A stretch of DNA of 32,000 nt from Rhodobacter capsulatus SB 1003 (GCF_000021865.1 NC_014034.1:3120001-3152000), one strand, 5' to 3'. Shown: positions 8,894 to 26,941, numbered from the stretch's first letter. Program-made: numbers and translations. The notes: generated by a model not told the origin, from the letters alone.

Positions 8894-9117
8894 TCAAGCG
8901 GGCGGTGCAGATCTTGCCAATCCGCGCCGTTTGCCCCACCGGCGGGCTCGGATCCTCCTTCAAAGCAGCGTTTTTTTCGGTCAGCGACACCGGAAACGAC
9001 AAATTAACAATGCCGAGATCATCATTGGCTGCGACGCTTTTACTGTTGGATTATTTCCAACTTCGAGCGACATTGAGAAGATGATAGTGATCCGCCGAAG
9101 CAACGGCAACGTGGCGC

Positions 9118-10374: not shown

Positions 10375-10856
10375 TTTACCTCCTTGATGCCAATACATTG
10401 ATCAGGGCTAACGCCGACTATTATCCGATTGAGCGAATTCCGCAGTTTTGGGATTGGCTGATAGGATGCGGCCAAACAGGTTTGGTGAAAATACCAAACG
10501 AGATCGCAGACGAGGTGACCGCAGGTCGGGATGACGTTGCGGATTGGCTGAAGGAGGCAGAGGCTAAAAATGCACTTCGGCTCAGCGAGAGAGTAGATAT
10601 CACAGCCCTCCGGCATGTCGTTGCCACAGGTTACGCGCCAGACCTCGACTCGACGGAGATGCAGAAGATCGGCAAAGACCCCTTCCTCATTGCTTATGCA
10701 CTCGGAAAGCCCGACCGCAGGGTAGTTACCAAAGAACAGTCAAAGCCCTCCAAAATCCGTTCCAATCGGAAGGTGCCCGATGTGTGCGATGCTTGCGGAG
10801 TAACTTGGTTGAACGATTTCGGCTTCTATCGAGAGGCGGATTTCAGGATCTGCTGA
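10371..10856 (+). CDS. PIN-like DUF4411-family protein (putative toxin/nuclease partner of the ImmA-XRE protein)
   Basis: The N-terminus MIYLLDANTLIRANADYYPIERIPQFWDWL matches the DUF4411 pattern. GTG start at 10371 has AAGGAGGAAGG 7 nt upstream and overlaps the preceding stop by 4 nt. Confidence 0.75.
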   Translation: MIYLLDANTLIRANADYYPIERIPQFWDWLIGCGQTGLVKIPNEIADEVTAGRDDVADWLKEAEAKNALRLSERVDITALRHVVATGYAPDLDSTEMQKIGKDPFLIAYALGKPDRRVVTKEQSKPSKIRSNRKVPDVCDACGVTWLNDFGFYREADFRIC

Positions 10857-10900
10857 CCTTTTGTCAAGTATTCGTTTAGGCTTATGGTCAACTGAATTCC

Positions 10901-11476
10901 CTAATCAGACTTTGGAAGCATTTCGCCGTCCTTATCTAACCCTTGGGAAATGATCGACAGGGCCTTGTCGCGCATCTGGATTGCGGCGCCCCGGCTGATC
11001 GTGCCCCGGGCCTTGATCGCCGCATCGAAGGGCTTTTTCGTCACCTTGCAGCGCAGCCAAAGGGCCAGGATCTTGGCGCTGCCTTCGTGGTCCTTGAGAT
11101 AAATGCGGGGCCAATCGAGCGCGGCTTCATGGCGGCTGATCTGTTCGGGCGACGGCATGACGCGCAGGCGCCGGGGATCGGGGTCTTCGTCACCGGCCAC
11201 CTCGGGCAGGCCCCAGCCCTCGGCCAGATGCTCGTCAAGGCTCGCGATGAAGGGCAGCGCCACCGTCTTGATGCCGCCCGGCCCGGTCCTGCCTGCCGAC
11301 CATTGCGCCCACCGCAGCGCCTCAAGCATCGCCTCGCCCACCGCCTTCGGGGTCCATTGCTCGGCCGGGGCATAGCGCGCCGCCAGCACGGCGTTTTCCC
11401 GTTCGCGGAACCGCTCGGAATACTCGGCCAGCAGGGAGGCCATCTGGGGATTGCGCACGGTTACTCGGGCGTTCAT
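10901..11476 (-). CDS. Hypothetical protein with a possible C-terminal HTH-like segment
   Basis: 191 aa from ATG 11476, with AGGAGG 9 nt upstream. Composition is balanced. The C-terminal segment ISRGAAIQMRDKALSIISQGL resembles an HTH recognition region. Confidence 0.65.
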   Translation of the reverse strand: MNARVTVRNPQMASLLAEYSERFRERENAVLAARYAPAEQWTPKAVGEAMLEALRWAQWSAGRTGPGGIKTVALPFIASLDEHLAEGWGLPEVAGDEDPDPRRLRVMPSPEQISRHEAALDWPRIYLKDHEGSAKILALWLRCKVTKKPFDAAIKARGTISRGAAIQMRDKALSIISQGLDKDGEMLPKSD

Positions 11477-11688
11477 AGGCGGCTGCCTCCTGCTTGTGGG
11501 GATGCGACAAGATAGCACTGGCCCACGGGCAGGGAAAGCCCGCAGCGCCCACGCGCTGGCGCGTGGCGCGCATCTTGGGGCTTCCGCTACCTCACAGCCG
11601 CCAGCGCAAAGTGCGCATCAGCGGGCCGGAAATCGGCCCCTCCGTCGATCCGCCCGCTGCGAGAGTGCTTGCCAGCGCTCTGACACGC

Positions 11689-12756
11689 TCAGAGGTAGCT
11701 TTTGACGGTTGCCTCGATCTGCTCCGCGAATTTGTAGATGTCGGACAAATCTTCGATCTGAACCTTCGTTTCCGACTTGTCGGGCTGCGGCGCAAAGATG
11801 CCCACCGACTTGCTGCTCTTGGCGTTGAAATAGAGGCGGCAGATCGGCTTGCGGTTGTTGTCGTCCACGAAGATGCTGCAATAGGACAGCGCGTCACGCA
11901 TCGTGATCCGGTTCACATTCGCAACTCTCGAAGCGATGGCCCGAACGATCATGAAGGCCTGCATTTCGTCATCAGTCGTCACGGGCTCACTGCCCACAGG
12001 GGCATCGGCTGGCTTCTTGTCGGGGCTGTCGATCTGCGGGGCGTCTTTTCCGAAGGTGATGTTCAGCCGCTCCTGAATGCGGTTGCGCACGATGTCATCC
12101 AGTGCGGCCTGAATGGCCGGGCGCAGCAATTCAATCGCCCCTTTGGTGAGGCTGCCCTCGTAGATGTGCTTGCCGAAGAAGCGCACGAAATCATCGTCCG
12201 GGTTCGCAAGCTGGCGCGAAATCTCGGCCGAGGCGGCTTTGACGTATTTAAGGTTCGACGCCGCCTCAAGGATTGCCTCGATGTCGAAGCCTTCCTTCTG
12301 GAACCGGGCGAGTTCGGCCACCTGCCTGTCATCGTAGTTCTGCAGATCGAAGACGAAGAAGGGCTTTTTGTCCATCTTGTTCGTCTCGTCAATGTCCGAG
12401 AAGAACCAGACCTCGCGGCCATTGGTCAGGATCGCAAGCCGCGCCTCAACCGTCGAGAAATAGCGGAACAACTGACTGTATTGCGCCGACCCCAAGGCCA
12501 TTGAGATGGGTTTCGCTTCCACGAGGATGGCGGGCTTGCCCGCGATCTTGAGGGCAAAGTCGATCTTTTCGCCCTTCTTGATGCCGACATCGGCAATGAA
12601 CTCGGGCACCACCTCTTCGAGATTGAAGGGGTCAAACCCCAGCGCCTTGATCAGCGGCAGGATCACCGAAGTCTTCGTCGCTTCCTCGGTCAGCGCGTGC
12701 TGGCTGGCGTGCCGCGACCGAGCCCCGAGGTCATCCACGCGCTGTTTGAAATCCAT
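11689..12756 (-). CDS. HsdR_N-type PD-(D/E)xK nuclease domain protein with an unassigned C-terminal half
   Basis: EATKTSVILPLIKALGFD ... KIDFAL ... ILVEAK ... LAILTNGREVWFF gives the D...E-x-K core typical of type I restriction enzyme HsdR N-terminal-like domains. ATG at 12756 has GGAGGA 8 nt upstream. Confidence 0.8.
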   Translation of the reverse strand: MDFKQRVDDLGARSRHASQHALTEEATKTSVILPLIKALGFDPFNLEEVVPEFIADVGIKKGEKIDFALKIAGKPAILVEAKPISMALGSAQYSQLFRYFSTVEARLAILTNGREVWFFSDIDETNKMDKKPFFVFDLQNYDDRQVAELARFQKEGFDIEAILEAASNLKYVKAASAEISRQLANPDDDFVRFFGKHIYEGSLTKGAIELLRPAIQAALDDIVRNRIQERLNITFGKDAPQIDSPDKKPADAPVGSEPVTTDDEMQAFMIVRAIASRVANVNRITMRDALSYCSIFVDDNNRKPICRLYFNAKSSKSVGIFAPQPDKSETKVQIEDLSDIYKFAEQIEATVKSYL

Positions 12757-12877
12757 TTCGCCGTTCCTCCATAAACCCAATGGTTGCACGGTGGGACACT
12801 TCTTGACGATTCTCAAGGTCTTGAATGTGACCTGCCGCCAGACCACAGCGCCAGTTTGACAGATCAATGACGCGCCT

Positions 12878-13327
12878 TCAGTCTGGAAGCTGGGCAAGAT
12901 CTGCGGCGATGGCCCCTTGCGCACGGCGCAGCGCATCTTCGATGGCCCGCCGCTCACGCATGTCGCGGGTGACGCGGGCAGGCAAGCCGCCGATCTGATC
13001 CGCGATCACGCCGCAGAGGAAATCGGTCGCGGTTTCCGCCTCGGCATAGGGGATCACGTCACGGCGGGCGACGGCAAGAGCAAGTTCGCTGGCCTCGGCC
13101 CGGGCGTCCCGGGCGCGGGCCATCGCCGCCGAGGCGCTGGCGGTGCGGTTATTGTCGCGCAGGTGGGCGAGATAGGATTGAACCGCCGAAATCATCGGCA
13201 GCTTGTCGCCGTCGAGCGGCGGAAGCGTGCCTGCCGCGATCAGGTTTTCGATCTCCCCCGGTTCGGCGCAGGTCAGGCGGCGCAGGCCGCTCAAGGTGAT
13301 CGTTGCAGTCGGGCGGGCAGTCGTCAT
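12878..13327 (-). CDS. Nu1/COG4220-like small-terminase-like DNA-binding protein (paralogue 2)
   Basis: 149 aa. The pattern ASAAMARARDARAEASELALAVARRDVIPYAEAE...GGLPARV resembles phage Nu1-type TerS. The start overlaps an upstream open frame (ATGA). Confidence 0.5.
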   Translation of the reverse strand: MTTARPTATITLSGLRRLTCAEPGEIENLIAAGTLPPLDGDKLPMISAVQSYLAHLRDNNRTASASAAMARARDARAEASELALAVARRDVIPYAEAETATDFLCGVIADQIGGLPARVTRDMRERRAIEDALRRAQGAIAADLAQLPD

Positions 13328-13498
13328 GCTTTCACCTCTTTCGGCCCAAGGCCGCGCGCGGCCCGGGCGTTTCGCTTGGCAAGGGCCGCGGCCAGCTGGT
13401 CCAACTCCACAGCCAGCCGGGCAATCCGGCGGGCCTCGTCAGGCTGATCAGGGGCCTGTGCGTGGGAGAGAGCGACGAGGCGGGCCAGCGCTTGTCGA

Positions 13499-13813
13499 TC
13501 ACGTCAACGAGATCTGCGCGGCGCGGGCTGCGTCACGGCGCAGGCGGCGAAGATACAATGGCGTGCCGCGAAGGCCCGGCGGTGGCCCCCGGCGGGTCGG
13601 GCGCAGGGCCGCGTCAATTGCAGCATCACCTCCAGCGATCCGGCCCTTGTAATAGGTAATGGCCTCGTTGACGGCATCCGAGAAGACAATGCGCCCATCG
13701 GCGCCCGCGGCCTGACGGATCACAGAGGCGGGCGCGCGCAACTCGCGCGCCGCCACCTCGAAAGGCAACTCCTGCGCCATGAGGCGGGCGACGGCGCGGG
13801 GAAGATCAGTCAT
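13499..13813 (-). CDS. Hypothetical protein (C-terminal third looks out of frame or low-complexity)
   Basis: ATG at 13813 overlaps the stop of the upstream gene (ATGACTGA). The first ~65 aa look sensible and the tail is Arg/Pro/Gly-rich. Confidence 0.45.
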   Translation of the reverse strand: MTDLPRAVARLMAQELPFEVAARELRAPASVIRQAAGADGRIVFSDAVNEAITYYKGRIAGGDAAIDAALRPTRRGPPPGLRGTPLYLRRLRRDAARAAQISLT

Positions 13814-14306
13814 CGCCGCCCCCAAGGTCGCGAAGGTCGCCCGTCGAGAGTGCCGCCAAGGCTCGGACCTTGGCCGCTTCAATGGCACGGCAAGCTGCGC
13901 TGATTTCCGTGGACAACACCTTGCGGGTCGCGGGCGTGAGCCCCTTGTCAACGGGGGCTTTGCGCAGGCGCGAAACCGCGGTGCGCGCGATGCGCTCGAT
14001 GACGGCCTCAGCCTCGGCCAGGTCGATAAGTTCGGCCCGGCGGCGCTCGGTCGAAGCGGCGATCAGAGCCGCCTTCGCCTCATGAGACCGGCTGGCCGCG
14101 GTGCTGGCGGGGGTCTTTCTGGCCTCGGCTTTCAGAAATCTGACGTATCCCTGCACCGCCGAAGTCGCGGTCGTGTGGCCCCGGGCAACCTTGGCGACGT
14201 ATCCCATCTTCGCCAGTTGTCGAAGCCGCTCAGGCCCGATGCCCAGGAGGCGTGCCGCCGCCTCCATCGGCAGGGCGTCCGGGGGCAGATCGGCGGGCGT
14301 GGTCAT
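13806..14306 (-). CDS. Nu1/COG4220-like small-terminase-like DNA-binding protein (paralogue 1)
   Basis: 166 aa from ATG 14306. The HTH (MEAAARLLGIGPERLRQLAKMGYV) is followed by FLKAEARKTPAS...AKAALIAASTERRRAELIDLAEAEAV. It starts 2 nt after the upstream stop. Confidence 0.5.
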   Translation of the reverse strand: MTTPADLPPDALPMEAAARLLGIGPERLRQLAKMGYVAKVARGHTTATSAVQGYVRFLKAEARKTPASTAASRSHEAKAALIAASTERRRAELIDLAEAEAVIERIARTAVSRLRKAPVDKGLTPATRKVLSTEISAACRAIEAAKVRALAALSTGDLRDLGGGDD

Positions 14307-14308
14307 AG

Positions 14309-15019
14309 TCAGCCCCGCGTCAGATCGGCCATCGCCCCACCGGCCAGCCCAGCGGCGCCGATGGACGCATTCGCATCCTTGACGGCTTTCGCCCACATGC
14401 TGTCGATACGCTCGCCCTTCGACATGCCGCCGCCGTTGTCAAACGAGGGGCCGAACGAACCCGCCTCGCGCTGACGCTGCTCGAAAGTTGGATATTTCCG
14501 CGCTTCCGCTTTGGGCGCAGCCAGCAGCGCGGAAACCGCCTGCGCGAGCGTGAGGTCAGTTTCAAGCGCAAGAGCCGAGGCGGTCGCGAAACGGTCGGCG
14601 GCTTCGGGATGGCCGAGGATCGAAGCGACCCGGCGCCGTTCGTTCACCGCCGCCTGGGTGCCGAATGTGCCGATGGCCTCGGGGATCGCCAGCGCCTCGG
14701 CGGTGGCGGAAGCGTCAGGCGGCAGGGTGGCCAGAACCGCCCGTGCGCCCGTGGCATCGAGAGGTGTCGAGATGGCCAAACGTGCCGCTTGCATGGCCTT
14801 GCCCGCGTCGGCACCGGTCTTGATCACGCCCGCAATGCGCTGGCGCTCGGCTTGCGCCTCGGCGGCGATGGCGGCAGCGGCCTTGGCCTGCTCGGCGGCC
14901 TTGGCCTCTGCGGTCAGTTCGGCCTCGATCCGGGCAGCTTCCGCTTCGCGCTCGGCAGGCGAAAGCCCGGTTGCGAACGCACGGCGGGCGGCAACGGATT
15001 TGATTTCAGCGGGTGTCAT
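14309..15019 (-). CDS. Ala-rich protein with an internal duplication; phage scaffold / prohead-protease C-terminal-like (tentative)
   Basis: 236 aa. It has two copies of an ER(Q/R)R(I/V)A.I...A..LA(I/L).T.L....A...L...P module. ATG 15019 overlaps the upstream stop (ATGA). Confidence 0.6.
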   Translation of the reverse strand: MTPAEIKSVAARRAFATGLSPAEREAEAARIEAELTAEAKAAEQAKAAAAIAAEAQAERQRIAGVIKTGADAGKAMQAARLAISTPLDATGARAVLATLPPDASATAEALAIPEAIGTFGTQAAVNERRRVASILGHPEAADRFATASALALETDLTLAQAVSALLAAPKAEARKYPTFEQRQREAGSFGPSFDNGGGMSKGERIDSMWAKAVKDANASIGAAGLAGGAMADLTRG

Positions 15020-15261
15020 CGTTTACTCTCCTTGGATTTTCGCGCGGCGAAGACGGCTTCGATTGCCTCGGTCCGCGCGCTGGCGATGGCGCGGAAGGCC
15101 TTCGCCCTTTCGACCGAGCGAAACTTTGGCCACGCGGCCACGAACCGGCCAAGCAATTCGGAATTGGAAATTGTCAGCCACACCGTCGCCGAGAGTTTCA
15201 GCGCCTCGCGCGGATGGCCGAACCCGACGAACTGCCGAGCTGCTTCTCGCAGATCAGGCAT
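15016..15261 (-). CDS. Hypothetical protein
   Basis: 81 aa with ATG at 15261, balanced composition and coupling to the downstream gene. Confidence 0.55.
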   Translation of the reverse strand: MPDLREAARQFVGFGHPREALKLSATVWLTISNSELLGRFVAAWPKFRSVERAKAFRAIASARTEAIEAVFAARKSKESKR

Positions 15262-15418
15262 CTATATTTTCCACTTCCATTCCGGCGGGTCGGATTTGCT
15301 CGGCGGCGCGGCTCATGAGGAACGCCAGGCCGGGACGCGGCTGCGCTTGCCGATCTTGAAGTTCAGCGCGCGCTGCCCGAGGGTCTTTTACGGCGGAGAT
15401 GTGTGTCTTTTCGGTCAC
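15254..15418 (-). CDS. Possible small ORF (54 codons, GTG start)
   Basis: My own translation is VTEKTHISAVKDPRAARAELQDRQAQPRPGLAFLMSRAAEQIRPAGMEVENIDA. Its TGA overlaps the next ATG, and AAGGA lies upstream of the GTG. It falls below the ORF-track length cutoff. Confidence 0.3.
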   Translation of the reverse strand: MTEKTHISAVKDPRAARAELQDRQAQPRPGLAFLMSRAAEQIRPAGMEVENIDA

Positions 15419-15784
15419 TTACTGTCCTTCCGGTGTTGCAGAAATACAACCAAAATGCGTTTTTCACGGGTCGGAAAACGACGAAAAGCCGGGCCGTCGA
15501 AGCGCCGCTCCTGGGAGGGGGCCGGGTAAGGTCCCTAGACCGGGGGGGCCCCGCAGCGTCCCGGAGCGGCCCACCCACAACCCTCTCGCTCTGGCCGCTG
15601 GGGTAGTGGGACTGCACGCGGGATGCGCGCCCATGGCCTTGCTGCGCGGTCCGGCGAAGGGGATGGCCCGGGCGCAGGGGCACCCGGGCCGCGCCGTGGC
15701 ATCTTGCCGAAGGATGCCCGACGACTTCGATGCGCGAACGGGCCAGCCGGAAATCGGAAGCCTGCCCATCCGTGCATCGCATCT

Positions 15785-16348
15785 TCACGGGATCAGCGCG
15801 GCGTCAGCGGCCAGCGCGACAAGCGGCGACAGGTCAGACCGGCGGGCGATGCTGACGCCCTGCGCTTCGAGCCGCCGGATCGCGCTTTCCTCGGCCAGTT
15901 CGGCGCGCAGGATCTCGGCATCCAGTTCGGCCAGCCGGGCAACCCGGTCGGCGTCGGTCATGCCCGGCCGGGCGCTTTCGAGGTCTTCGAGTTGTCCGAC
16001 GATCAGATCGCGGATCGCGGCACGGTTCGTCGCGACGAACAGGCCGAACAAGGTCTGAACGGCGACGTCCGCACGCCCGCTTTCGGACAGCTTCAAGCCC
16101 GACATGCCGCGCCGATCTCTCAACTGGTGAAGCGAAAGCGCATCGACCGCCTCGGTGGCGATGGCGTCGAGGTGGGCGTCGAGATCGGTCATCACGTCGG
16201 CCAGCACCCGCGGCGCTGCTTCGATCTGGGCGCGATCAGCGCGCAGGCTGGCGATCTGGTCGCGATGCGCGTCAATGGCGGTCAGCAAGGCGTTGATGCC
16301 ATTGGGCACGGCGGGGGCACTCGCTTTGGATTTCGGGGTTTTCAGCAT
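15785..16348 (-). CDS. Hypothetical coiled-coil protein
   Basis: 187 aa from ATG 16348, 1 nt after the upstream stop. The track N-terminal extension is Arg/Pro-rich and is rejected. Confidence 0.6.
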   Translation of the reverse strand: MLKTPKSKASAPAVPNGINALLTAIDAHRDQIASLRADRAQIEAAPRVLADVMTDLDAHLDAIATEAVDALSLHQLRDRRGMSGLKLSESGRADVAVQTLFGLFVATNRAAIRDLIVGQLEDLESARPGMTDADRVARLAELDAEILRAELAEESAIRRLEAQGVSIARRSDLSPLVALAADAALIP

Positions 16349-16349
16349 T

Positions 16350-16850
16350 TCAGCGCACTTCCCCGGCAAGCGTGATCGGCACGGTGGCGCCATGGTCGAG
16401 GGCGAAGCGAAGGGCCGAACGCAGCAGCCGGTCGGCTTGCGCCGCGGCATCCGAGGCGGTTTCGGCTTCCGCGACTGCGGCCTCACGGGCGGCCATCAGT
16501 TGATCGATTTCGGCATTGATCTGCGAAATCTCGCCTTCCGCGCGAAAATCGCCCGCAATGTCGATGCGCTCCGAAATGAGACGCACGCGCACGCGCCGCT
16601 CCTCAATTTTCTCACGCAGCGCGTGCATCTGATCCGATGCGAACCGGGCCGTGGAGCGATGCCGGTCGCGGATCTTGGCCAGGGCTGCCAGTCGCTCGGC
16701 CGGGCGGATTTCGATGCCATCGACGGTCAACGCCGCGGTCGGGTGGGCGGGCTTCGGCGTCGGCGGGGGCGGCAACGGTGCGGTGCGGCGGGGCTGGCCG
16801 CCGTTCACGAATGCGCCGAGGTCGCGAAAGCGGTCTCGATAGTCGGACAT
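16350..16850 (-). CDS. Hypothetical coiled-coil protein
   Basis: 166 aa from ATG 16850 (MSDYRDRFRDL...), with GAAAGG upstream. Confidence 0.6.
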   Translation of the reverse strand: MSDYRDRFRDLGAFVNGGQPRRTAPLPPPPTPKPAHPTAALTVDGIEIRPAERLAALAKIRDRHRSTARFASDQMHALREKIEERRVRVRLISERIDIAGDFRAEGEISQINAEIDQLMAAREAAVAEAETASDAAAQADRLLRSALRFALDHGATVPITLAGEVR

Positions 16851-16925
16851 GTTATGGCCTTTCGGTTTCTTGTCCCAACCATGCCACTGTCGCCACCGTC
16901 CGAGGATACCCCCCCTGAAATGCGA

Positions 16926-16946
16926 CGCCCGCCGGATCGGCGGGCG
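16926..16946 (-). terminator. Hairpin CGCCCGCCG-GAT-CGGCGGGCG, a possible intrinsic terminator
   Basis: Perfect 9-bp GC stem 22 nt downstream of the 16969 stop. On the minus strand it is followed by TCGCATTTC, a weak U-tract. Confidence 0.4.
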
Positions 16947-16968
16947 CTTCGGGTCATGCGAGAGACGA

Positions 16969-17613
16969 TCAGAAGGAAAAGCTGGCCTGCGGCTCGGCCT
17001 CGGCCCGGTCCAACCTGATCCGCGCGGCCAGAAGGTCCACCGCGGGCATCGCGTGGTGGAGGTCAAGTTTCATCACCTGAAACCACGTCTCCGCCTCACC
17101 TTGAGGTCTGGCCGTCCGTTCCTCCCGGTCGCGCAACCATTGCCCGGAAGCATACCTGGCGCACGATGCGCGCAACGCCTTGGCGGCGGCGGTGGCCGTC
17201 ATGCTCGCATATGGCGCCTCGCGCGACAGAGCGAGAACGAGGGCGTTCCGCTCGGCGATTTTTGCCGTGAATGCCAGCGGCCTGCGGCCATCCCGAGGCC
17301 GCAAGCCGAGGTGAAAGTCCAAGAAATCGTGCTGGCCGAGATCGCTTTCGAGCCAATCGCGGATCAAAGCCGACAGTTCTCTGACCGACCGATCAAGGCT
17401 CATTTCGCCCATCTCCACCAATCGCGCCAGTGCCGATCCGATAGCAACTGGCCCGGCCGCAAGAAGGGCCATCGGGTCATCTGCACCCCATTCGGCCGAG
17501 GTCGCCCACGCAGGCAAATCGGGGCGCTGGATCCACGCGCAGTCCATCCGTTCAGGCACGTCTTCGTGGTCTATCTCGAAGCCTCGGAGGGCCTCTGGGG
17601 CCGAGCTGCTCAT
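16969..17613 (-). CDS. Hypothetical protein
   Basis: 214 aa from ATG 17613, overlapping the upstream stop (ATGA). Composition is balanced. Confidence 0.6.
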   Translation of the reverse strand: MSSSAPEALRGFEIDHEDVPERMDCAWIQRPDLPAWATSAEWGADDPMALLAAGPVAIGSALARLVEMGEMSLDRSVRELSALIRDWLESDLGQHDFLDFHLGLRPRDGRRPLAFTAKIAERNALVLALSREAPYASMTATAAAKALRASCARYASGQWLRDREERTARPQGEAETWFQVMKLDLHHAMPAVDLLAARIRLDRAEAEPQASFSF

Positions 17614-17978
17614 GCTGCCCCCCGCGCACGACGGCACGCGGTCAGATCAAAAACGGTCGCGCTCGGTTTCTGGGGCGCGGTCGGGAGGGGCTTGACCGGG
17701 ACAGGGCCAAGGGCGGCACTTCCCCGGATCGCGATCAGTTCCAGCCGCACCGCAGTCGAGAGGTCTTCGATGCAGTGTTGCCGCATCAGGTCAGGTAGAC
17801 GTTTCCGTTCCAGAACGCGCACGGCTCGCTCGCGCCAGTTGCGCCAAAGCGCCGTCGCCCCCGCCCGGTCGCCACGATCCAACAAAGGCACGAGCGACCG
17901 GGCGAAGGCACGCTCGTCGAAGCCGGGCAGCAGTTTCTCGCGCGTGCCCCAGATGACAAAAAGCTTGTCGTCGTCCAT
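17610..17978 (-). CDS. Hypothetical protein
   Basis: ATG at 17978 (the track start at 17981 is TTG), with a TGATG overlap with the upstream gene. Confidence 0.6.
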   Translation of the reverse strand: MDDDKLFVIWGTREKLLPGFDERAFARSLVPLLDRGDRAGATALWRNWRERAVRVLERKRLPDLMRQHCIEDLSTAVRLELIAIRGSAALGPVPVKPLPTAPQKPSATVFDLTACRRARGAA

Positions 17979-18625
17979 CAAAAGCCCTCCCGGCCGTCAT
18001 CCTTGATCGGATAGCCTGCCGCCTCCAGCATGTCTTCGAGCGCCAAAATCGCCTCGGACGTCCTCTCAACTATCCTCACCGCGCGACGGAAATCGCGCGC
18101 TGCCTTTTCAGTGTGCGTGATGATTTCCGCGAGTTCGGGCATGTAGGACGAGGCGCGGATGGCACGGTGAAGCCCGGCGGCAACGACGCAGGCAGGCCAG
18201 CGGTTTTCGTCTGCTTCGATGGTCAGGGCCAACGTGAGCGAGGCCAGATAACCGCCGTGTGCCTCCTTGAGGTTCGGCTTCAGCGTAAGCAACGCGGCGA
18301 TGCTTTCGGCGACATCAGGGGCTGCAGCCTTCTTCGCCAGCGTCGATTCGATCCGTTTGCCGGTGCTGACGAGCCATTCGACATCCGGCAACCGGGCGTA
18401 TAACTCAGCAGCCTCAGCGGGATCGGACGGAATGCAAAGCCGTAACCCTGATGTGCTTTCCGCCCAAAGCCCGGTCAGTTCAGGGGCCAAAATTTCTCGG
18501 ACAGCCCTAGCCGGGGCAAGGATGCGGCCGAGCGCATCTTGCGACGGCGCACGCTGCGCAGGGCTTTGCTCGATCTCGTTGCGCCCCGTTTCCAGATTTG
18601 TGGGGAGATTCTTGGTCGGTTCCAT
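17978..18625 (-). CDS. Hypothetical protein
   Basis: ATG at 18625 is preceded by GAGG at about 8 nt. The alternative ATG at 18640 lacks an SD and overlaps the rep stop. Confidence 0.6.
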   Translation of the reverse strand: MEPTKNLPTNLETGRNEIEQSPAQRAPSQDALGRILAPARAVREILAPELTGLWAESTSGLRLCIPSDPAEAAELYARLPDVEWLVSTGKRIESTLAKKAAAPDVAESIAALLTLKPNLKEAHGGYLASLTLALTIEADENRWPACVVAAGLHRAIRASSYMPELAEIITHTEKAARDFRRAVRIVERTSEAILALEDMLEAAGYPIKDDGREGF

Positions 18626-18633
18626 CGTTCGCC

Positions 18634-19527
18634 TCACCATTTATGCGATAGTTGCGCTGCGGCGTATTCAGCCAGCGCGGCAGCGTCAGGAACTGCGCCA
18701 CCCCGGGGACTTGCAGAACGCGGGCGCGGCGGCGCCGGAATATCTGTCCAGCGTTTTTCCGCGAGCCAGTTCTTCGCCACTTTCGTAAAATGTAGCACGT
18801 CTCGGGGATCCTCGCCTGCATCGATTTTTGCGCGCAGCGACATGGCGTAAATTTCTGCGCCGCGGATGATCTGAGCCGGATCTTCGCCTGACGCGATGGC
18901 CGCCGCCCAAGCCGACTGCGCCGCAGATTTTGAGATGCGCTTGGGGTAGGTGCGCCAGAACACTTCAAAGCCGGTCGCGTCGATAATCTCTCCCGCCGCG
19001 GGTTCCATTACCGCGACGACTGCGGCAGCATCATCAGCTTGGGGGATATAGGGGGAACTCTCCCTAATATCTTCCAGTTGTTGAGGTCTAGTAGTTGGGG
19101 TTCGATTTTGTGGACTTTTATCCACCTGTTCGTGGACTTTATTCGAGATTAAGTCCACGTTCGTAGACTTTATTGCCTCATCGAATTGGTTCGATTTCGT
19201 GGACTTTATTGCGGGGATGATCGCCTGATAGGTTGCGGCGTCGCGGCCACGGCGCCGGTCTTCATCCGAACGTGACGACAGTTTCTGCGATGCCAGCGCC
19301 AGTAGTCCGGCGGCCTTGAGGCGCGCGATGACCCCAGCGGCGGCGGCGCGTCCCACGCCGAGGTCGGATTGCAAATCAGTGTAGGATCGGAAAAAGCGAC
19401 CATCGTCGCCGACCCAGCGCAAAAGCAGAACGGCGGCGGTTACATCGAGGTCGCGCAGATCGTGGTGTCGTGTCGCGACCATTGAAGCGACCGCCTTGAC
19501 CCACGCAACCCCGTTGAAATCACTCAT
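18634..19527 (-). CDS. Replication initiator-like protein (N-terminal wHTH) with an origin-like iteron array inside the gene
   Basis: 297 aa. The wHTH-like segment is SYTDLQSDLGVGRAAAAGVIARLKAAGLL. The central low-complexity linker is encoded by the iteron DNA. Its position after the excisionase-like gene is typical of island Rep/Pri genes. Confidence 0.65.
   Translation of the reverse strand: MSDFNGVAWVKAVASMVATRHHDLRDLDVTAAVLLLRWVGDDGRFFRSYTDLQSDLGVGRAAAAGVIARLKAAGLLALASQKLSSRSDEDRRRGRDAATYQAIIPAIKSTKSNQFDEAIKSTNVDLISNKVHEQVDKSPQNRTPTTRPQQLEDIRESSPYIPQADDAAAVVAVMEPAAGEIIDATGFEVFWRTYPKRISKSAAQSAWAAAIASGEDPAQIIRGAEIYAMSLRAKIDAGEDPRDVLHFTKVAKNWLAEKRWTDIPAPPRPRSASPRGGAVPDAAALAEYAAAQLSHKW
19110..19210. 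repeat. Iteron array (T)TCGTGGACTTTATT (four direct copies plus one inverted core)
   Basis: GTGGACTTTTAT at 19110-19121. GTGGACTTTATT at 19132-19143 and 19199-19210. GTAGACTTTATT at 19163-19174. Inverted AAGTCCAC at 19151-19158. The stretch is locally AT-rich inside a GC-rich gene. Confidence 0.85.
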
Positions 19528-19536
19528 GCTGCACCT

Positions 19537-19725
19537 TCACGCGGCAGTGTCGGTCGGAAGCAGGGTCGCCACGTAGCGGTCAAGCTCGATCTTCGCGACG
19601 AGGGATTTCCCGTGGATTTTCGAAAGGCGGATCTCGCCCGCGCTGACGAGTTCGTAAAACTTCGACCGCCCAAGGCGCAGCACTTCGCGGGCCTCGTTCA
19701 CGGTCAGGAAGATGGGGGTGGTCAT
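19537..19725 (-). CDS. AlpA/excisionase-family HTH DNA-binding protein
   Basis: 62 aa: MTTPIFLTVNEAREVLRLGRSKFYELVSAGEIRLSKIHGKSLV. AGGAG lies 8 nt upstream of ATG 19725. Confidence 0.8.
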   Translation of the reverse strand: MTTPIFLTVNEAREVLRLGRSKFYELVSAGEIRLSKIHGKSLVAKIELDRYVATLLPTDTAA

Positions 19726-19811
19726 CGGTTGGGCTCCTGTTATCCGCGCCAATCCGCGTTGGCGCATTAATGTTTTTGCGCCCGAACCCCCTCACATGGC
19801 AAAGAAGGAAC

Positions 19812-20558
19812 CTAAGATTTTTCCCCGAGGTTTTTTCGCGCGGCGGCTATCGTCTCGGGACGATCAAGCCGGATGGCATCGACCGCGGCCATTGCCGCGT
19901 CGATGATGCGCGCCACCAAATCGGCGTCGAAATTGTCAAGGGCAGAGCGCAGGCGCCAGTCCAGATCCTCGCGCCAGGCTTTGCGCGGCGCACCGTTCTT
20001 CCCGTTCGTTGCGTGGTCAATCGCCGCCAAATCGCGCGCAAGGGCTTCGGCGGCGACGGCGGCGGTCATGGCGTGCCCCGTCGCGGAAGCGGTCAGCGCC
20101 GCACCAAGCGCCTCACCCTGCGCCTGCACACGCGCGCTCAGTTCTTGCGCTTTGCGGGCAAAGTTCGCCACCTGTTCGTTCAGCGACTTGAATTCCGGTC
20201 GAGAAAAACCGCCAGACCGGGCGCGCAGCGCCCTGATCACCGCCGTCTCAACCTCGGGCGGAAGGCCACCTGATCTAGCAATCAAGACAATCTCGCGATC
20301 ATGCAGCGCGGCGTTGATCGCGCACACTACAGCCGACAAGGCCGCCGCCTCGAATTGTGTTCGCGCCGCTGGTTCGATCAGGAACGGAAGATCGTCGTCA
20401 CCATCCGTAGGCGCGCGGGGCGGGTATGCCTCGGGCATCCGCTCGGTGCGAACGGTTGCATCGGGCGAGGCGGTGATTTCCAGCACCCGCAGGTTTCCCA
20501 CCGCATCATGCAGCAGGCCAGATAGGTCGATCCGCTCGGCATCAAGGCGAATGCGCAT
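19812..20558 (-). CDS. Hypothetical protein immediately downstream of the integrase
   Basis: 248 aa. ATG 20558 directly abuts the integrase stop at 20559. Confidence 0.6.
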   Translation of the reverse strand: MRIRLDAERIDLSGLLHDAVGNLRVLEITASPDATVRTERMPEAYPPRAPTDGDDDLPFLIEPAARTQFEAAALSAVVCAINAALHDREIVLIARSGGLPPEVETAVIRALRARSGGFSRPEFKSLNEQVANFARKAQELSARVQAQGEALGAALTASATGHAMTAAVAAEALARDLAAIDHATNGKNGAPRKAWREDLDWRLRSALDNFDADLVARIIDAAMAAVDAIRLDRPETIAAARKNLGEKS

Positions 20559-21851
20559 TCAGCCCTCCCCGCCCGCGGCCCGCAGCGGCACGACGTTTTC
20601 CGCGTCCGGCGGGGCAGCGACGAAAGCCGCCCATTGCTCCATAAGCACGCGGCGCCGGTCGAAAAGATCAGACCGAAGATAGGCCCTCACGGTCGCATCA
20701 CCGATCTGGTGCGCCAGGGCTTGCTCGATCACGTCGAAGGGCGCGCTCGAACATTCGGCAGCCCAATCCCGAAATGCAGATCGGAACCCGTGAACCGTGG
20801 CATCGACGCCCATGCGCTTGAGAACCGCCCCGAGCGTCATGTCTGAAAGCTGGGCATGGCGCAGGCCGGGGAACACCAGCGCCCCCGGCCGATCTTCCGG
20901 GCGGCGCGGGCGCAGCGGCAGCATCGTTTCGATGACCTCCACCGCCCTATCCGTCAACGGGACGCGATGTTCCCGGCCTGCCTTCATCCTCTCACTCGGG
21001 ATAGTCCAGACCCGAGCGTCTAGGTCGAATTCGCCCCATCGTGCGCCGCGTACCTCGCCCGAGCGCGACGCGCATAGGATCAGAAATTCTAGCGCGCGGG
21101 CGGCCACGCCCTCGCGGTCGGCCAGCGCGGTCATGAACGCGGGCAAGTCACGCCATGGAAGGGCCGTGAAATGACCTTTGCTCAGCACTCCATGCGCGGG
21201 TAGAAGCAGTGCAAGGTGGCCCTGCCAGCGCGCGGGGTTCAGCCCCATCGGGCGCAGCCCTTCGACCATCGCGGCATCGAGAACCTTTTCGATCCGCTGT
21301 CTGATCCGGCTGGCCGTTTCTCGTTTCGTGTTCCAGATCGGCCGGATGACGGTCAGCACGTCGTCCACTCCGACCTCGGCCACCGGGCGCTTGCGAAGGT
21401 CCGCGCAATAATCGGGGCCGGGCTTGGCCCGCCCGCCCTCTTTGACCTCGGGGCCGAGCAACGTGCTGCGCCACTGCGCACGGTGCTTGGCATTTTTCCA
21501 ATCGCCCTCGCGCGCCTCGATGAACTGGCTGGCGTATTCCCCGAAAGTCGTCAGACCGGCTGCGGCGGCCTTGGCCTCGGCCTTGGCGGCCTTCTTGGCG
21601 TCGAGCGGGTCTTGCCCGGCGGCCAGCAGGCGGCGGGCCTCGGCGGCCTTCTCCCGGGCGTCGGCTAGGGACACGGTAGGGAAAGGCCCCAACCCCATTT
21701 CTCGTTGCTTGCCGTTGAGCCGATAGAAGAACACCCAGGAGCGGGCGCCACTCTTCGTGATGTTGAAATAGAGGTTCCCGCCGTCACTGTGCCGCCCGGG
21801 TTCGGTCAATGCAGCGATTCCGCGCGCGGTAAGTCGATTGATGCCAGCCAT
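20559..21851 (-). CDS. int: Tyrosine integrase, P4-type, with a DUF4102-like arm-binding N-terminus
   Basis: N-terminus LTARGIAALTEPGRHSDGGNLYFNITKSGARSWVFFYRLNGKQREMGLG. Catalytic region GEVRGARWGEF ... HGFRSAFRDWAAE ... VRAYLRSD. It is adjacent to the tRNA-Ser 3' end. Confidence 0.93.
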   Translation of the reverse strand: MAGINRLTARGIAALTEPGRHSDGGNLYFNITKSGARSWVFFYRLNGKQREMGLGPFPTVSLADAREKAAEARRLLAAGQDPLDAKKAAKAEAKAAAAGLTTFGEYASQFIEAREGDWKNAKHRAQWRSTLLGPEVKEGGRAKPGPDYCADLRKRPVAEVGVDDVLTVIRPIWNTKRETASRIRQRIEKVLDAAMVEGLRPMGLNPARWQGHLALLLPAHGVLSKGHFTALPWRDLPAFMTALADREGVAARALEFLILCASRSGEVRGARWGEFDLDARVWTIPSERMKAGREHRVPLTDRAVEVIETMLPLRPRRPEDRPGALVFPGLRHAQLSDMTLGAVLKRMGVDATVHGFRSAFRDWAAECSSAPFDVIEQALAHQIGDATVRAYLRSDLFDRRRVLMEQWAAFVAAPPDAENVVPLRAAGGEG

Positions 21852-21871
21852 CCCCGCCCTCGCAATGTGCC

Positions 21872-21924
21872 GTCCCTAGCGTCCCTGATGGGAGGGGTCA
21901 GCAATCCCTAGCGCAATCCCTAAC
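21872..21924. promoter_or_regulatory. Cluster of (A/G)TCCCTA(G/A)C motifs at the integrase-proximal end of island 2 (candidate arm-type sites)
   Basis: GTCCCTAGC at 21872-21880, GTCCCTG at 21881-21887, ATCCCTAGC at 21904-21912 and ATCCCTAAC at 21916-21924. The same motif occurs at the distal end (7992-8095). Confidence 0.45.
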
Positions 21925-22047
21925 ACAAAACGCGGATTCTGGCAAACCTGAGCGGACAAACGCAAACGCAGGAAGACGAAAAGCGGGGAATTTCCGTTGA
22001 AAAACCGGATATTAGCGGATCGCTTCGGATTTCTGCGGAAGAGGGGG

Positions 22048-22137
22048 TGGCGGACGGGATGGGATTCGAACCCACGAGACGGTTCCCCGCCTACACACTT
22101 TCCAGGCGTGCGCCTTCGACCACTCGGCCACCCGTCC
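22048..22137 (-). tRNA. tRNA-Ser (anticodon GGA), 90 nt with encoded CCA
   Basis: Manual fold: acceptor GGACGGG/CCCGTCC, D-arm GCC-GAGTGGTCGAA-GGC, anticodon stem CACGC/GTGTG with loop CTGGAAA, an 18-nt variable arm, and T-arm GTGGG-TTCGAAT-CCCAT. The discriminator is G, followed by CCA. Confidence 0.9.
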
Positions 22138-22157
22138 GCGGCCGGGTTTAGCGGCAA

Positions 22158-22183
22158 ATCTCCCCCCTCGCAAGAGGGGAGAT
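22158..22183 (-). terminator. Hairpin ATCTCCCC...GGGGAGAT downstream of the channel gene
   Basis: 8-bp stem (22158-22165 / 22176-22183), possibly extended around a GCAA tetraloop. On the minus strand it is followed by TTTGCC. It lies between the stop at 22200 and the tRNA 5' end. Confidence 0.5.
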
Positions 22184-22199
22184 CGCCCTTCAGCCCGTC

Positions 22200-24683
22200 T
22201 CAGCGGTCGTCGCCTTCCTCGGCGCCGTCGTTGTCCGACAGAACCGCAATCCCCTCGCCCGGCTCGGGACGCGCGGGCGCGGGCGCCGCCGCGATCGTGC
22301 CGTGGCCCACCACCATCTTTTCCGCCGGAGGCACGTAATCGGACCGCAGCATCTCGGGGTTGCGGATCCAGACATCGCGCTGCGGGAAGGGAATCTCGAT
22401 CCCCTCGCGGGCGAACCGTTCCGCGATCTGGTGGTTCATCTCCGAATGCACCCGCAGCTTGAAGTTCACATCCGACAGGATCGCGCGGATCTCGAAGTTC
22501 AGACTGTCCGCCCCGAAGCCGGTGAAGACGGCAAAGGGCGGCGGATTCATCATCACCAGCGGATGCGCCTGGGCGATCTCGGCCAGCATCGCCTCGATCC
22601 GGCGGGTGTCATTGCCGTAAGCCACCCCCACCGGCACGATCAGCCGACCGGTCTTGTTGCCGCGCGTCCAGTTCGTCACCGCCCCCGAAATCAGATCGGC
22701 ATTCGGCACGATCACATCGGTGCGGTCGAAGGTCTCGATGATCGTCGCGCGCACCGAGATGTTCTTGACGATGCCCTGACGGCCGCCGACCTCGATCCAG
22801 TCGCCTTCGGAAATCGGCCGTTCGACCAGCAGGATGATGCCCGAGACGAAGTTCTGCACGATCGTCTGCAGACCGAAACCGATGCCGACCGAGAGCGCCC
22901 CGGCGACGATCGCCAGCGACGACAGGTTGATCCCGGCGGTCGATATCGCGATCAGCGCCGCCAGCAGGATGCCGACATAGCCCAGCCCGGAAACGATGGC
23001 GTTCTGGCCGCCTTTGTCGATCGTCGTGCGCGGCAGGATCGACGCCTTGAGCGCGCCCTGAAAGATCCGCGTCAGCGTGTAGCCGATGGTGAAGACGACG
23101 GCGAAGGTGATGAAGGAGGTGGGCGAAATCCGCACCCCGCCCACCGAGATCCCGGCCTGGAACGAGGTCCAGAGCTCGATCAGATCCTCGACCCGCGCCC
23201 CCCAGATCAGCGCCAGAACCGGCATCGAAGCCAGCGACAGCAGGAAGCCCCCCAGCACCGGCAACAGCGCGTCACGGCGGGCTTCGGGGCCGGAGACGGT
23301 GACGTAAAGCTCGGCCAGGAAGCTTTGCAGCGTGATCACCAGCGCCAGCAGCCCCAGCGTCTGCACGGCGGGCCAGATCAGCGCATTGGCGGCGCTGACA
23401 TAGCCGATCACCCCCAGCACCGGCCCGGCCACGGCGATCAGCAACAGCGCATTGCCAAGCCAGCGCAGCAGACCCAGCCGGAAGGCGCCGTCGGCCTCTT
23501 CGGCGAGGATCGCGCCATTGCCCTGACGGCGCAAAAGCTGCCCCATGCGGAACAGCGCCAGCGCCGCGAAGACCTGCAGCGGCACCTGCAGCACCGACAG
23601 CGCCGCATCGGCCTTGGCCGCGACATCCGCCGCGCGTTCCGAACCAAGCTCGCCCGCGCCGCCCAGAAAATCCTCGGCCCGGGGCGCGATCCACATTTCG
23701 ATCAGCCGATAGGCCATGAAGGCCAGACCCAGCATCAGCGCATAGACCCGCCCCTCGGCGCCGGGGGTGATCACCCCCTCGCCCGCTTGCGGCGGAAACA
23801 CCCGCGTGCCCAGCCAGCGCGCCGCCAGCACGACAAACAGCATCCCCGGCGCCAGCAGGTAAAGCGAGGACAGGATCGGCCCGAAGAGCGCCGTCTTCTC
23901 CAGCGCCGTCGTCGCCATCACCGCCCCCGCGGTGGGCAAAAGCACCTGCCCGAAGCTGACGATGCCGGAAATCAGATTGCGCCCGCGCATCGCGGTTTTC
24001 GTCAAAAGCCAGCGCGTCAGCCGCGCCATCCAGGCCCCGCCCCGCGCCAGAAGCAACAGCGCGCCCAGGATCAGGCCGATGATCAGGGGGGCATTGTCAC
24101 GCGCGGTCTCGTAATTCACCGGCTGCGTGAAGCGCCAATGCGTCTCCTCATAGATCCATTCGCCCATCCAGCGCAAAAGCGAGGCCCCCGCGGGCCAGTT
24201 CACCGGATTGGCCACCGAGGGCGAAAGCCGCAACAGCTTGTCCGCCTGCCGTTCGCGGATCAGCTTGTCGATGGCACGGATGATCGCATCCGAGCGGCTT
24301 GCAGCCTCGGTCGCCGAGATCCCCGGCGCCTGAAGCTTTGAAAGCTGGGTGTTCAGATCGTCGCGGCGTTTGGCGATCAGCGGATCTTCGGGCGTGCCCT
24401 CGGCGGGGGGCGGGCCCAGCGCCGCGATCTGGCTTTTCAGCGTGTCGATCTGGCTGGCGTTCGTGCCCTGCGCCTCGGTGAAGGTGGTGCGCCATTTCAC
24501 CATCTCGGCGCGCATGTCGGACAGCCGCGCATCCGAGATCTCGCCCTTGGCGACGGCCTCCTCGACCTGCGAGGAGGCCTTGGTGAAGGCCTTGTAATTC
24601 GGTTCGCCGTCGCTTTGCGCCGCGACGGGCAGCGCAAGGACCAGCGTCAGCAGAAGGACGCGCAGAAACAGGCGGGCGATCAT
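22200..24683 (-). CDS. MscK/KefA-like mechanosensitive ion channel (MscS superfamily)
   Basis: 827 aa. It has a signal peptide (MIARLFLRVLLLTLVLALPVAAQ), a long helical periplasmic region, multiple TM segments and an MscS-type C-terminal domain (GDWIEVGGRQGIVKNISVRATIIETFDRTDVIVPNADLISGAVTNWT). Confidence 0.9.
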   Translation of the reverse strand: MIARLFLRVLLLTLVLALPVAAQSDGEPNYKAFTKASSQVEEAVAKGEISDARLSDMRAEMVKWRTTFTEAQGTNASQIDTLKSQIAALGPPPAEGTPEDPLIAKRRDDLNTQLSKLQAPGISATEAASRSDAIIRAIDKLIRERQADKLLRLSPSVANPVNWPAGASLLRWMGEWIYEETHWRFTQPVNYETARDNAPLIIGLILGALLLLARGGAWMARLTRWLLTKTAMRGRNLISGIVSFGQVLLPTAGAVMATTALEKTALFGPILSSLYLLAPGMLFVVLAARWLGTRVFPPQAGEGVITPGAEGRVYALMLGLAFMAYRLIEMWIAPRAEDFLGGAGELGSERAADVAAKADAALSVLQVPLQVFAALALFRMGQLLRRQGNGAILAEEADGAFRLGLLRWLGNALLLIAVAGPVLGVIGYVSAANALIWPAVQTLGLLALVITLQSFLAELYVTVSGPEARRDALLPVLGGFLLSLASMPVLALIWGARVEDLIELWTSFQAGISVGGVRISPTSFITFAVVFTIGYTLTRIFQGALKASILPRTTIDKGGQNAIVSGLGYVGILLAALIAISTAGINLSSLAIVAGALSVGIGFGLQTIVQNFVSGIILLVERPISEGDWIEVGGRQGIVKNISVRATIIETFDRTDVIVPNADLISGAVTNWTRGNKTGRLIVPVGVAYGNDTRRIEAMLAEIAQAHPLVMMNPPPFAVFTGFGADSLNFEIRAILSDVNFKLRVHSEMNHQIAERFAREGIEIPFPQRDVWIRNPEMLRSDYVPPAEKMVVGHGTIAAAPAPARPEPGEGIAVLSDNDGAEEGDDR

Positions 24684-25708: not shown

Positions 25709-25772
25709 GTCTCTCCCTCGTCCCGGGGCATTGGGCCCGGTCGGGCAAGAGTAAAGGGCAAGCGGGGGCGCC

Positions 25773-26915: not shown

Positions 26916-26941
26916 GCGCCCATCCGCGGTTGGGGCGCGGC

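Follow-up and report, generated by a model that had tools for sequence, protein, structure and literature searches.

A putative phage satellite with paired small-terminase genes and a stand-alone scaffold-like gene in Rhodobacter capsulatus

Results

A discrete island at a tRNA-Ser gene

We analysed a 32,000-nucleotide stretch of the Rhodobacter capsulatus SB 1003 genome (GCF_000021865.1, NC_014034.1:3120001-3152000), hereafter the window, in whose coordinates all positions are given. It carries a mobile element, island 2, part of which had been described from the sequence alone as a likely phage satellite with two small-terminase (TerS) genes and a scaffold-like gene. Island 2 occupies 7933-22045 (14,113 bp, read on the minus strand) and is bounded by an 18-bp direct repeat. 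One copy of this att core, GGTGGCGGACGGGATGGG, lies at 22046-22063, where it overlaps the 3' end of tRNA-Ser(GGA) (22048-22137, minus strand) and consists of the last 16 bases of the tRNA gene and the next 2. The only other copy in the window, at 7915-7932, marks the junction with a tandem element, island 1. Two R. capsulatus assemblies (CP198940.1 and VIBE01000018.1) join window positions 1-7932 to 22046-32000 with a single copy of the 18-bp sequence. These empty sites define island 2 as a discrete insertion of 14,113 bp, made by site-specific recombination. The window is 99.97% identical over 20.7 kb to another R. capsulatus chromosome, CP198954.1, and the complete genome CP198942.1 likewise contains the island.

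The preliminary description had guessed a Rhodobacteraceae-like host and an island of about 14 kb, and both guesses agree with the species and the measured length. Its extent (12878-21851) holds for the part from the integrase to the second TerS gene; the element also includes the cargo region at 7933-12877. The repeat TCCCTAGC occurs six times in the 32 kb, three times at 21664-21912 and three times at 7993-8075, with every copy within about 400 bp of an island end (0 of 100 shuffles reached six). Because of this clustering and the Arm-DNA-bind_3 domain of the island integrase, these repeats are probably arm-type integrase sites.

Two TerS homologues with different conserved regions

The proteins encoded in the window were scanned with Pfam and PHROG profiles, and PADLOC was used for defence genes. 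Two genes on the minus strand, TerS-A (13806-14306, 166 aa) and TerS-B (12878-13327, 149 aa), matched phrog_57, the PHROG 'terminase small subunit' family (8e-7 and 6e-12, respectively). Using hhalign, TerS-A aligned with phage TerS at a probability of 99.7% (E 3e-26) and TerS-B at 99.8% (E 1e-27). The two island proteins are 29% identical over 82 residues and aligned with each other at a probability of 96.6% (E 5e-10). Profile searches of both kinds thus back the earlier proposal that these are two TerS paralogues. An AlphaFold2 (AF2) model of TerS-B (pLDDT 75) has a winged helix-turn-helix (wHTH; residues 8-43) and then three long helices. Of its PDB matches, lambda TerS 1-98 (6hn7_B; TM 0.60) had the highest probability (0.54), but at E 2 it is not significant. 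The fold of the N-terminal domain is that of a generic MerR/excisionase-like wHTH.

Relatives of both proteins occupy the small-terminase position of true phages. In the phage collection, TerS-A and TerS-B both match one protein of Microcystis phage Mae-JY30, whose gene directly precedes the large terminase gene (TerL), followed by the portal, a small gene, protease C, decoration protein D and major capsid protein E. Scanning genomes and IMG/VR with the TerS-B alignment recovered about 45 phage or prophage loci from Bradyrhizobium, Rhodoplanes, Brucella, Hyphomicrobiaceae and metagenomes. Each carries a single homologue directly upstream of a GpA-type TerL, with the portal, S49 protease, D and E genes usually following TerL. 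No TerL adjoins the island TerS copies. Sources label members of this protein family 'terminase Nu1 subunit'. On this evidence TerS-A and TerS-B are small-terminase homologues of a lambda-type module, an assignment that we make short of membership in the strict Nu1 family.

The two paralogues have kept different parts of the phage protein. In a joint alignment, the N-terminal helix-turn-helix (HTH) block is 42% identical to phage TerS in TerS-A and 19% in TerS-B, whereas the GLPARVTRD block is 13% identical in TerS-A and 41% in TerS-B. The C-terminal tail measures 29-32 residues in TerS-A and 12-14 residues in TerS-B (in the Rhodobacter and Gemmobacter copies), compared with 26-53 residues in phage TerS. 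TerS-A has therefore kept a phage-like N-terminal HTH and C-terminal tail, and TerS-B the GLPARVTRD core with a diverged HTH and a short tail. The regions conserved in the two copies are complementary. Lambda Nu1 contacts cosB through its N-terminal domain and the large terminase through its C-terminal part (PMC6739421). Neighbour-joining trees supported an A clade and a B clade in 200 of 200 bootstraps each, but their sisterhood in only 38 of 200; the pair may therefore stem either from an old duplication or from two separate captures.

A stand-alone scaffold-like protein

The gene at 14309-15019 (minus strand) encodes an Ala-rich protein of 236 aa that matched phrog_17040 and phrog_53, and an identical R. 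capsulatus protein was found on 81 contigs. PHROG 'head maturation protease' families were matched only through their C-terminal parts, in two stretches, and in tblastn the matching part of protease genes was their last third, at the 3' end. An HMMER search of 1.84 billion representative sequences returned 789 relatives. The best of these, about 55 clusters at 50% identity, are free-standing proteins of 200-270 aa without a protease domain. All ten of the tested hits of 340-540 aa carry Peptidase_S49, with the match C-terminal to that domain. In one 'capsid assembly protease', residues 307-514 align to nearly the entire 236-aa protein, and a profile of the island protein matched the last 90-105 residues of protease C at two phage loci (E 1.6e-18 at L045 and 1.1e-14 at L016). 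A nested scaffold or Nu3 is annotated in the part of the gene behind the S49 domain in some phage records.

The AF2 model of the 236-aa protein (pLDDT 84) is all-helical, and its top three BFVD matches are S49 or prohead proteases, not significant by E-value. Together with the match of a relative to the PHROG 'head scaffolding protein' family, the similarity to the stretch that follows the S49 domain in prohead proteases, where the Nu3 scaffold is positioned, gives profile support to the scaffold-like role assigned to this protein earlier. We accordingly refer to it as a putative Nu3-like scaffold-domain protein. Its internal duplication, also described before, was confirmed, although the similarity is modest (38% identity over 56 aa, E 0.001). 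At 14309-14400 the protein is about 25 residues shorter than relatives of 255-264 aa; a Pro/Thr-rich segment before the last helix is absent.

Homologues of both TerS and the scaffold tail occur together in phage loci L016/L032, L045 and L049. By homology and gene order, both island gene types trace to one kind of phage head module, made up of TerS, a GpA-type TerL, the portal, an S49 protease C with a scaffold tail, D and E.

Absence of other virion genes

No gene for TerL, a portal, a protease domain, a capsid, a decoration protein or a tail was found in the 32-kb window by tblastn with three phage structural sets. When the head and tail proteins of three phage types were used as queries, only the two TerS genes were matched. 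The Pfam and PHROG scans likewise revealed no other phage structural gene, so that the three methods agree with the preliminary description, which had found no large terminase, portal, capsid or tail gene in the island. Homology of the island genes to phage head-module genes would also fit a decayed prophage, in which TerS and scaffold are the leftovers of a lambda-like head module. However, tblastn gave no pseudogene traces of TerL, portal or capsid anywhere in the window, and more than 50 clusters (50% identity) have the scaffold as a free-standing protein that lacks the protease domain.

Conserved elements of the packaging operon

The packaging operon is preceded by a 366-bp non-coding region (15419-15784, upstream on the minus strand), present as previously described. 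Its hairpin, GGCCCGGG-N10-CCCGGGCC, shows a compensatory change in R. viridis; the motif AGGGACC is invariant, and GCATTTTGGTTG lies immediately before the first small gene. Conservation of these elements reaches Gemmobacter, and the fold z-score of the region is -2.3. A search of the window with Rfam returned only the tRNA and no match for this region, and no sigma-70-like promoter was found.

Two small open reading frames (ORFs) follow on the minus strand, the second of which had been listed as merely possible. Both are real genes because both are conserved in relatives. s54 (15254-15418, GTG start) is 77% identical over 35 aa to its counterpart in R. capsulatus DSM 1710 and 63% identical over 49 aa to that of R. 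viridis, with codon-level conservation extending to Gemmobacter. s81 (15016-15261) is 65% identical to its homologue in the DSM 1710 island.

Between TerS-A and TerS-B lies a further minus-strand gene, the middle gene (13322-13813), which has 163 codons in relatives. The 104-codon hypothetical gene reported earlier at 13499-13813 is not a complete gene: it is the 5' part of this conserved gene, cut by two 1-bp deletions at 13510 and 13487, in each of which one C of a CC pair is lost. These deletions, absent from every other R. capsulatus copy, uncouple the middle gene from TerS-B and represent either a sequencing or assembly error or a real defect of the island in this strain. A frameshifted gene is also what a decaying prophage could present. 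Programmed frameshifting was considered and rejected, the R. viridis copy being intact in one frame and only the copy in this window frameshifted. We also rejected the middle gene as a third TerS paralogue; a weak BLASTP match to TerS-A (E 0.023) was not upheld by hhalign (probability <2%).

A family of islands in Rhodobacterales

The block recurs in the order g166, g188, the gap, (s54, s81), scaffold, TerS-A, (middle gene) and TerS-B, with a DUF6362 gene further on. It was found in a second R. capsulatus island (DSM 1710), R. viridis, Gemmobacter lutimaris, a Gemmobacter metagenome-assembled genome, Cereibacter sphaeroides, Pseudorhodobacter and metagenome contigs. All genes of the family are now labelled 'hypothetical protein'. 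Two TerS-like paralogues in one small element had been noted as unusual, and the pairing proves to be a fixed trait across the whole family. The integrases of the relatives are 40-66% identical to that of the window and the islands sit at different tRNA genes (Ser, Arg, His), with different replication genes and cargo. The six islands with mapped ends measure 14.1, 14.0, 13.7, 14.3, 15.1 and 14.7 kb. This narrow range (13.7-15.1 kb) despite module exchange is the best sign, albeit an indirect one, of a packaging constraint.

Pairwise ratios of nonsynonymous to synonymous substitution rates (dN/dS), determined for the window, the DSM 1710 island and R. viridis only, were 0.2-0.55 for every module gene at dS 0.5-1.7. 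Individual values were 0.30-0.42 for the middle gene, 0.26 for s81, 0.35-0.55 for g166 and 0.29-0.49 for g188. These ratios indicate that the module genes are under purifying selection. Decay of a prophage, raised in advance as one of the findings that would overturn the satellite interpretation, is not borne out by these data. The empty site is known and the integration precise, the same reduced gene set and order are kept with intact ORFs in four genera, and dN/dS is 0.2-0.5 among the three Rhodobacter islands. The two diverged TerS genes are moreover fixed in the family, and no prophage in the set has them. Although one copy in R. capsulatus DSM 1710 has clearly decayed, with an IS21 fragment and a split TerS-B, we consider a prophage remnant very unlikely as the explanation for island 2.

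Several members of the family depart from the common layout. The DSM 1710 genome holds one intact and one degraded member. The degraded copy (scaffold 3; L011/L003) has lost the integrase, carries the IS21 fragment and has part of the split TerS-B fused into a 234-aa ORF, with TerS-B, HsdR_N nuclease, DUF6362 and SRAP genes retained. In Cereibacter sphaeroides (L068, 11215-14341) and in L066 (2325-4940), TerS-B is immediately followed by a tail assembly chaperone (Phage_TAC_7) and a tape-measure protein of 870 aa (PhageMin_Tail); it would be unusual for a satellite to encode its own tape measure. A Paracoccus sanguinis element on an IMG/VR contig (L042, 11,861 bp) encodes homologues of the integrase, Xis/AlpA, g166, g188 and DUF6362. 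It also carries a single phage-like TerS and an S49 protease domain without the scaffold tail, the complementary half to the R. capsulatus piece.

Integration, replication and small genes

The backbone genes all lie on the minus strand. A tyrosine integrase of 430 aa (20559-21851) contains the domains Arm-DNA-bind_3 (PF13356), Phage_int_M (PF22022) and Phage_integrase (PF00589) and matches phrog_1 (6.5e-44). It is followed by a 248-aa protein (19812-20558) without a Pfam, PHROG or PADLOC match, and by an HTH_17 excisionase/AlpA-like protein (19537-19767; PF12728, 3e-8), called in the sister strain as a 62-aa protein at 19537-19725. The latter matches phrog_66, annotated as 'excisionase and transcriptional regulator'; Pfam Phage_AlpA was matched only at the homologous position in relatives. 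The replication initiator Rep (18634-19527, 297 aa) matches phrog_270 (1.5e-20), phrog_9327 and phrog_9474, and no primase or helicase domain was detected in Pfam and PHROG scans of this region. Inside rep, at 19129-19212, lie three 17-nt iterons (TTCGTrGACTTTATTGC), a number reached in 0 of 100 shuffles, and this cluster is the probable replication origin. The preliminary description had listed an integrase, a hypothetical gene, an AlpA/excisionase-like HTH gene and a Rep with internal iterons, and all four lie at or near the places given for them.

Five small genes separate rep from the 366-bp gap, none of which matched a family in Pfam, PHROG or NCBIfam. Three coupled genes (16969-18625; 215, 122 and 214 aa) are partly conserved in relatives. 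g166 (16350-16850) is present throughout the family and also in the Paracoccus element, and g188 (15785-16348, 187 aa) is conserved family-wide. The translational coupling noted earlier for these genes is visible in the gene calls of the 99.97%-identical strain, which show 1-nt and 4-nt overlaps among three of them and a 1-nt spacing in another pair.

Cargo and the neighbouring island

Beyond TerS-B, the minus strand encodes an HsdR_N-type endonuclease-like protein of 356 aa (11689-12759; PF04313, PF13588; phrog_4225, 1e-103) and a DUF6362 protein (10901-11518; PF19889 below the Pfam cut-off; phrog_6836, 2e-20) that every family member conserves, as does the Paracoccus element. On the plus strand, an ImmA/IrrE-HTH protein resembling Rosmer RmrA (2.5e-10) is encoded by a gene that overlaps a DUF4411 (PIN-like) gene. 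The two (9118-10856) form a candidate Rosmer-like defence or toxin-antitoxin pair that the Pseudorhodobacter island carries as well (L070, 11473-13206). The far end of island 2 holds a plus-strand gene for an SOS-response-associated peptidase (SRAP; 8261-8893; PF02586, 2e-44). Its DSM 1710 counterpart (L013, 13865-14494), 90% identical, is also found at the distal end beside the att site, with different intervening cargo; the SRAP gene may therefore belong to the conserved backbone.

The element's own Rep with iterons and this defence-like cargo (the RmrA-like ImmA protein with DUF4411 and the HsdR_N nuclease) are what might be expected of a phage-independent integrative element, either plasmid-like and replicative or a defence island. 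Its TerS and scaffold genes would then have been domesticated, and the island would not be packaged at all. The TerS proteins could serve such an element as wHTH regulators, for which the generic fold of their N-terminal domain would be suited, and the domesticated genes could also act as anti-phage decoys that abort assembly or packaging or in partition-like functions. The analysis found no helper, no packaging site and no evidence of virions that would speak for phage dependence. However, the 13.7-15.1 kb range over six islands with different cargo has no obvious reason other than packaging, and TerS-A has kept the full TerS architecture including the C-terminal tail. The Pfam and PHROG scans of the window proteins also revealed no relaxase or conjugation gene that would offer another transfer route. 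Interference and satellite transfer are moreover compatible, and known satellites do both (PMC6739421). We therefore regard a phage-independent element as unlikely.

Island 1 (window 1-7914) is a second, unrelated island in tandem at the same tRNA-Ser site, and some strains have island 1 and lack island 2. It encodes a DUF6538-type tyrosine integrase (6440-7864), a protein of 452 aa and a resolvase (about 3824-4672). The low-GC cargo (GC 0.45, 1-3200) comprises a 615-aa PNP_UDP_1-domain protein, with weak PADLOC matches to PDC-M60C and a PN effector, and a 278-aa partner, which together may constitute a defence system.

Discussion

A helper-dependent satellite as the most probable explanation

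We conclude, with a probability of roughly 0.7, that island 2 is an integrative, helper-dependent phage satellite; its helper dependence, induction and capsid resizing are what we infer from its genes. The islands that share its module very probably form a satellite family in Rhodobacterales that has not yet been described. In the mechanism that we propose, infection by, or induction of, a lambda-like helper phage would trigger excision and Rep-driven replication of the island, and the conserved 366-bp upstream region would control the packaging operon. TerS-A would bind a packaging site within the island and recruit the helper TerL through its C-terminal tail. TerS-B could either co-assemble with TerS-A, setting the specificity for the island, or poison the TerS ring of the helper; the latter option would parallel the TerS and Ppi of SaPIs (Staphylococcus aureus pathogenicity islands), or the PICI (phage-inducible chromosomal island) protein Rpp. 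The scaffold protein would enter helper procapsid assembly, most plausibly redirecting it to capsids sized for about 14 kb. All remaining parts of the virion would be supplied by the helper.

Several results weigh against this interpretation. TerS proteins and scaffold tails of the island family are lacking in all sequenced R. capsulatus phages, and the helper was not found. Neither was a cos or pac site; the k-mers shared with regions upstream of phage TerS are GC-rich noise. IMG/VR viral contigs hold no close relative of the island, only true phages and the one Paracoccus element, and so provide no evidence of encapsidation. LexA-like and CtrA-like boxes occur at chance level, giving no induction signal. 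The earlier naming of the two paralogues as Nu1/COG4220-like holds in so far as they are TerS proteins by phrog_57 and hhalign, but Pfam Phage_Nu1 (PF07471) matches neither at E up to 0.1, and the label itself comes from gene context and source names. NCBIfam searches and PDB sequence and profile searches gave no match for the TerS proteins, and their Foldseek fold matches are not statistically significant. Finally, the frameshifted middle gene means that this copy of the island may be impaired. Phages of the RcKemmy type were considered as helpers and rejected: they have a GpA-like TerL, but neither their TerS nor their protease-capsid fusion significantly resembles the island proteins (best TerS profile E 0.021).

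As no helper phage is known and the host is the model organism for gene transfer agents (GTAs), the island might instead parasitise the R. capsulatus gene transfer agent (RcGTA) or be an accessory to it, with the island TerS redirecting GTA packaging and the island scaffold enlarging GTA heads. The TerL of RcGTA is of the headful type, its protease and capsid are of the HK97 type, and its particles take up only about 4 kb of DNA, too little for a 14-kb unit. The homologues of the island TerS and scaffold sit in head modules that combine a GpA-type TerL with an S49 protease and the D and E proteins. The low DNA specificity of the GTA TerS (PMC6854486) would be compatible with such redirection; however, the CtrA-type box is absent and the family extends to genera in which a GTA link is not evident. 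We hold this explanation to be extremely unlikely.

Within the satellite interpretation, a more far-reaching proposal can be made only tentatively, and we would put it at somewhat less than an even chance. Island 2 would be the founding example of a separate Rhodobacterales satellite family that uses an undescribed route. It would combine a two-subunit small terminase of sub-functionalised paralogues, one for DNA recognition and TerL docking and the other for the ring core, with a scaffold copied from the S49 protease tail of the helper that resizes capsids to about 14 kb. The Cereibacter members would have added a tape measure and a tail chaperone, and the Paracoccus element would have taken the protease half.

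If functional, island 2 would represent a new type of satellite in genetically tractable alphaproteobacteria (R. capsulatus, Cereibacter sphaeroides), with two new solutions for hijacking a helper: a complementary pair of TerS paralogues and a free-standing Nu3-type scaffold. It would also predict an unsampled lambda-like R. capsulatus helper with a phrog_57 TerS, a GpA-type TerL, an S49 protease with a scaffold tail, D and E. Defence-like cargo in these bacteria would then travel on phage-dependent elements.

Comparison with known satellites

The satellites described or studied in the literature that we searched come mainly from enterobacteria, Firmicutes and Vibrio, with virion-encapsidated integrative mobile elements (VEIMEs) in marine Alphaproteobacteria; no satellite of Rhodobacter or Rhodobacteraceae was described in the full texts searched. 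The authors of SatelliteFinder expect further satellite families (PMC10085698). The published core of a PICI consists of an integrase, AlpA, replication genes, capsid morphogenesis and TerS, without tail, holin or portal genes (PMC10085698). The PICI-like layout proposed in the preliminary description stands as regards the integrase, TerS and the lack of tail, holin, portal and head-tail connector genes. It does not extend to a PICI-type capsid-morphogenesis gene, in whose functional slot lies the scaffold-domain gene. Since this capsid gene is absent and the AlpA and replicase slots are ambiguous, we classify island 2 as PICI-like in organisation and not as a PICI. None of the features of capsid-forming PICIs (cfPICIs), namely an own capsid, portal, TerL and head-tail connector, was found in the island by Pfam, PHROG or tblastn.

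With the PICIs of the SaPI type (TerS_S, Ppi, CpmA/CpmB), island 2 shares a size of about 14-15 kb, the order of integrase, regulator, Rep/ori and packaging operon, the lack of other structural genes, and an own TerS homologue of the kind that redirects the helper TerL. Capsid resizing by a scaffold-related protein, which we propose here, would be a further likeness; the SaPI protein CpmB is scaffold-like. A second protein that interferes with the helper TerS, the 'two-shot' strategy of SaPIs (PMC6739421), may be present as well, as judged here from the genes. In contrast, no sequence relationship to any SaPI family in PHROGs was detected, and island 2 has a TerS paralogue as its second packaging protein. 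Its scaffold is of the type of a Nu3-like S49 protease tail, the predicted helper is lambda-like (GpA TerL, D, E), the host is alphaproteobacterial, and the system is known from its genes alone.

The cos PICIs of the EcCICFT073 type (Rpp, Ccm) likewise combine an integrase, AlpA and replication genes with a morphogenesis block (PMC10085698), and parasitise lambda-like helpers with a Nu1/GpA terminase. Their Rpp, a small wHTH protein that mimics the DNA-binding domain of TerS, changes packaging specificity (PMC6739421). However, Rpp is not a full TerS and requires that of the helper, whereas island 2 has two full-length TerS-family proteins. It also has the scaffold domain instead of a Ccm-type capsid homologue, and its Rep is an initiator with iterons in which no primase domain was detected.

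P4 is also an integrative and replicative element of about 11-14 kb, with a tRNA-adjacent integrase and no capsid genes, that resizes the capsid of its helper. Unlike island 2, it does so with an external scaffold, Sid, and carries the helper cos without a TerS; PHROG and Pfam scans found no homologues of Sid, Psu, Delta, epsilon or alpha among the island proteins. The marine VEIMEs are, as here, integrative elements of Alphaproteobacteria with a tyrosine integrase, AlpA and replication genes, and their module 6 contains TerS homologues closest to the TerS of co-occurring phages (10.1101/2022.07.26.501625). They differ in being defined by concatemers from virions and in mostly lacking capsid-remodelling genes, whereas the island family has a scaffold and paired TerS and did not turn up among IMG/VR contigs.

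The individual proteins also have parallels in phage lambda itself. Phage members of the TerS family hold the position of gpNu1 before a GpA-type TerL, and the counterpart of the 236-aa protein in gpC/Nu3 systems is part of the S49 protease gene behind the protease domain. The island scaffold differs from gpC/Nu3 in being free-standing and internally duplicated, with no protease.

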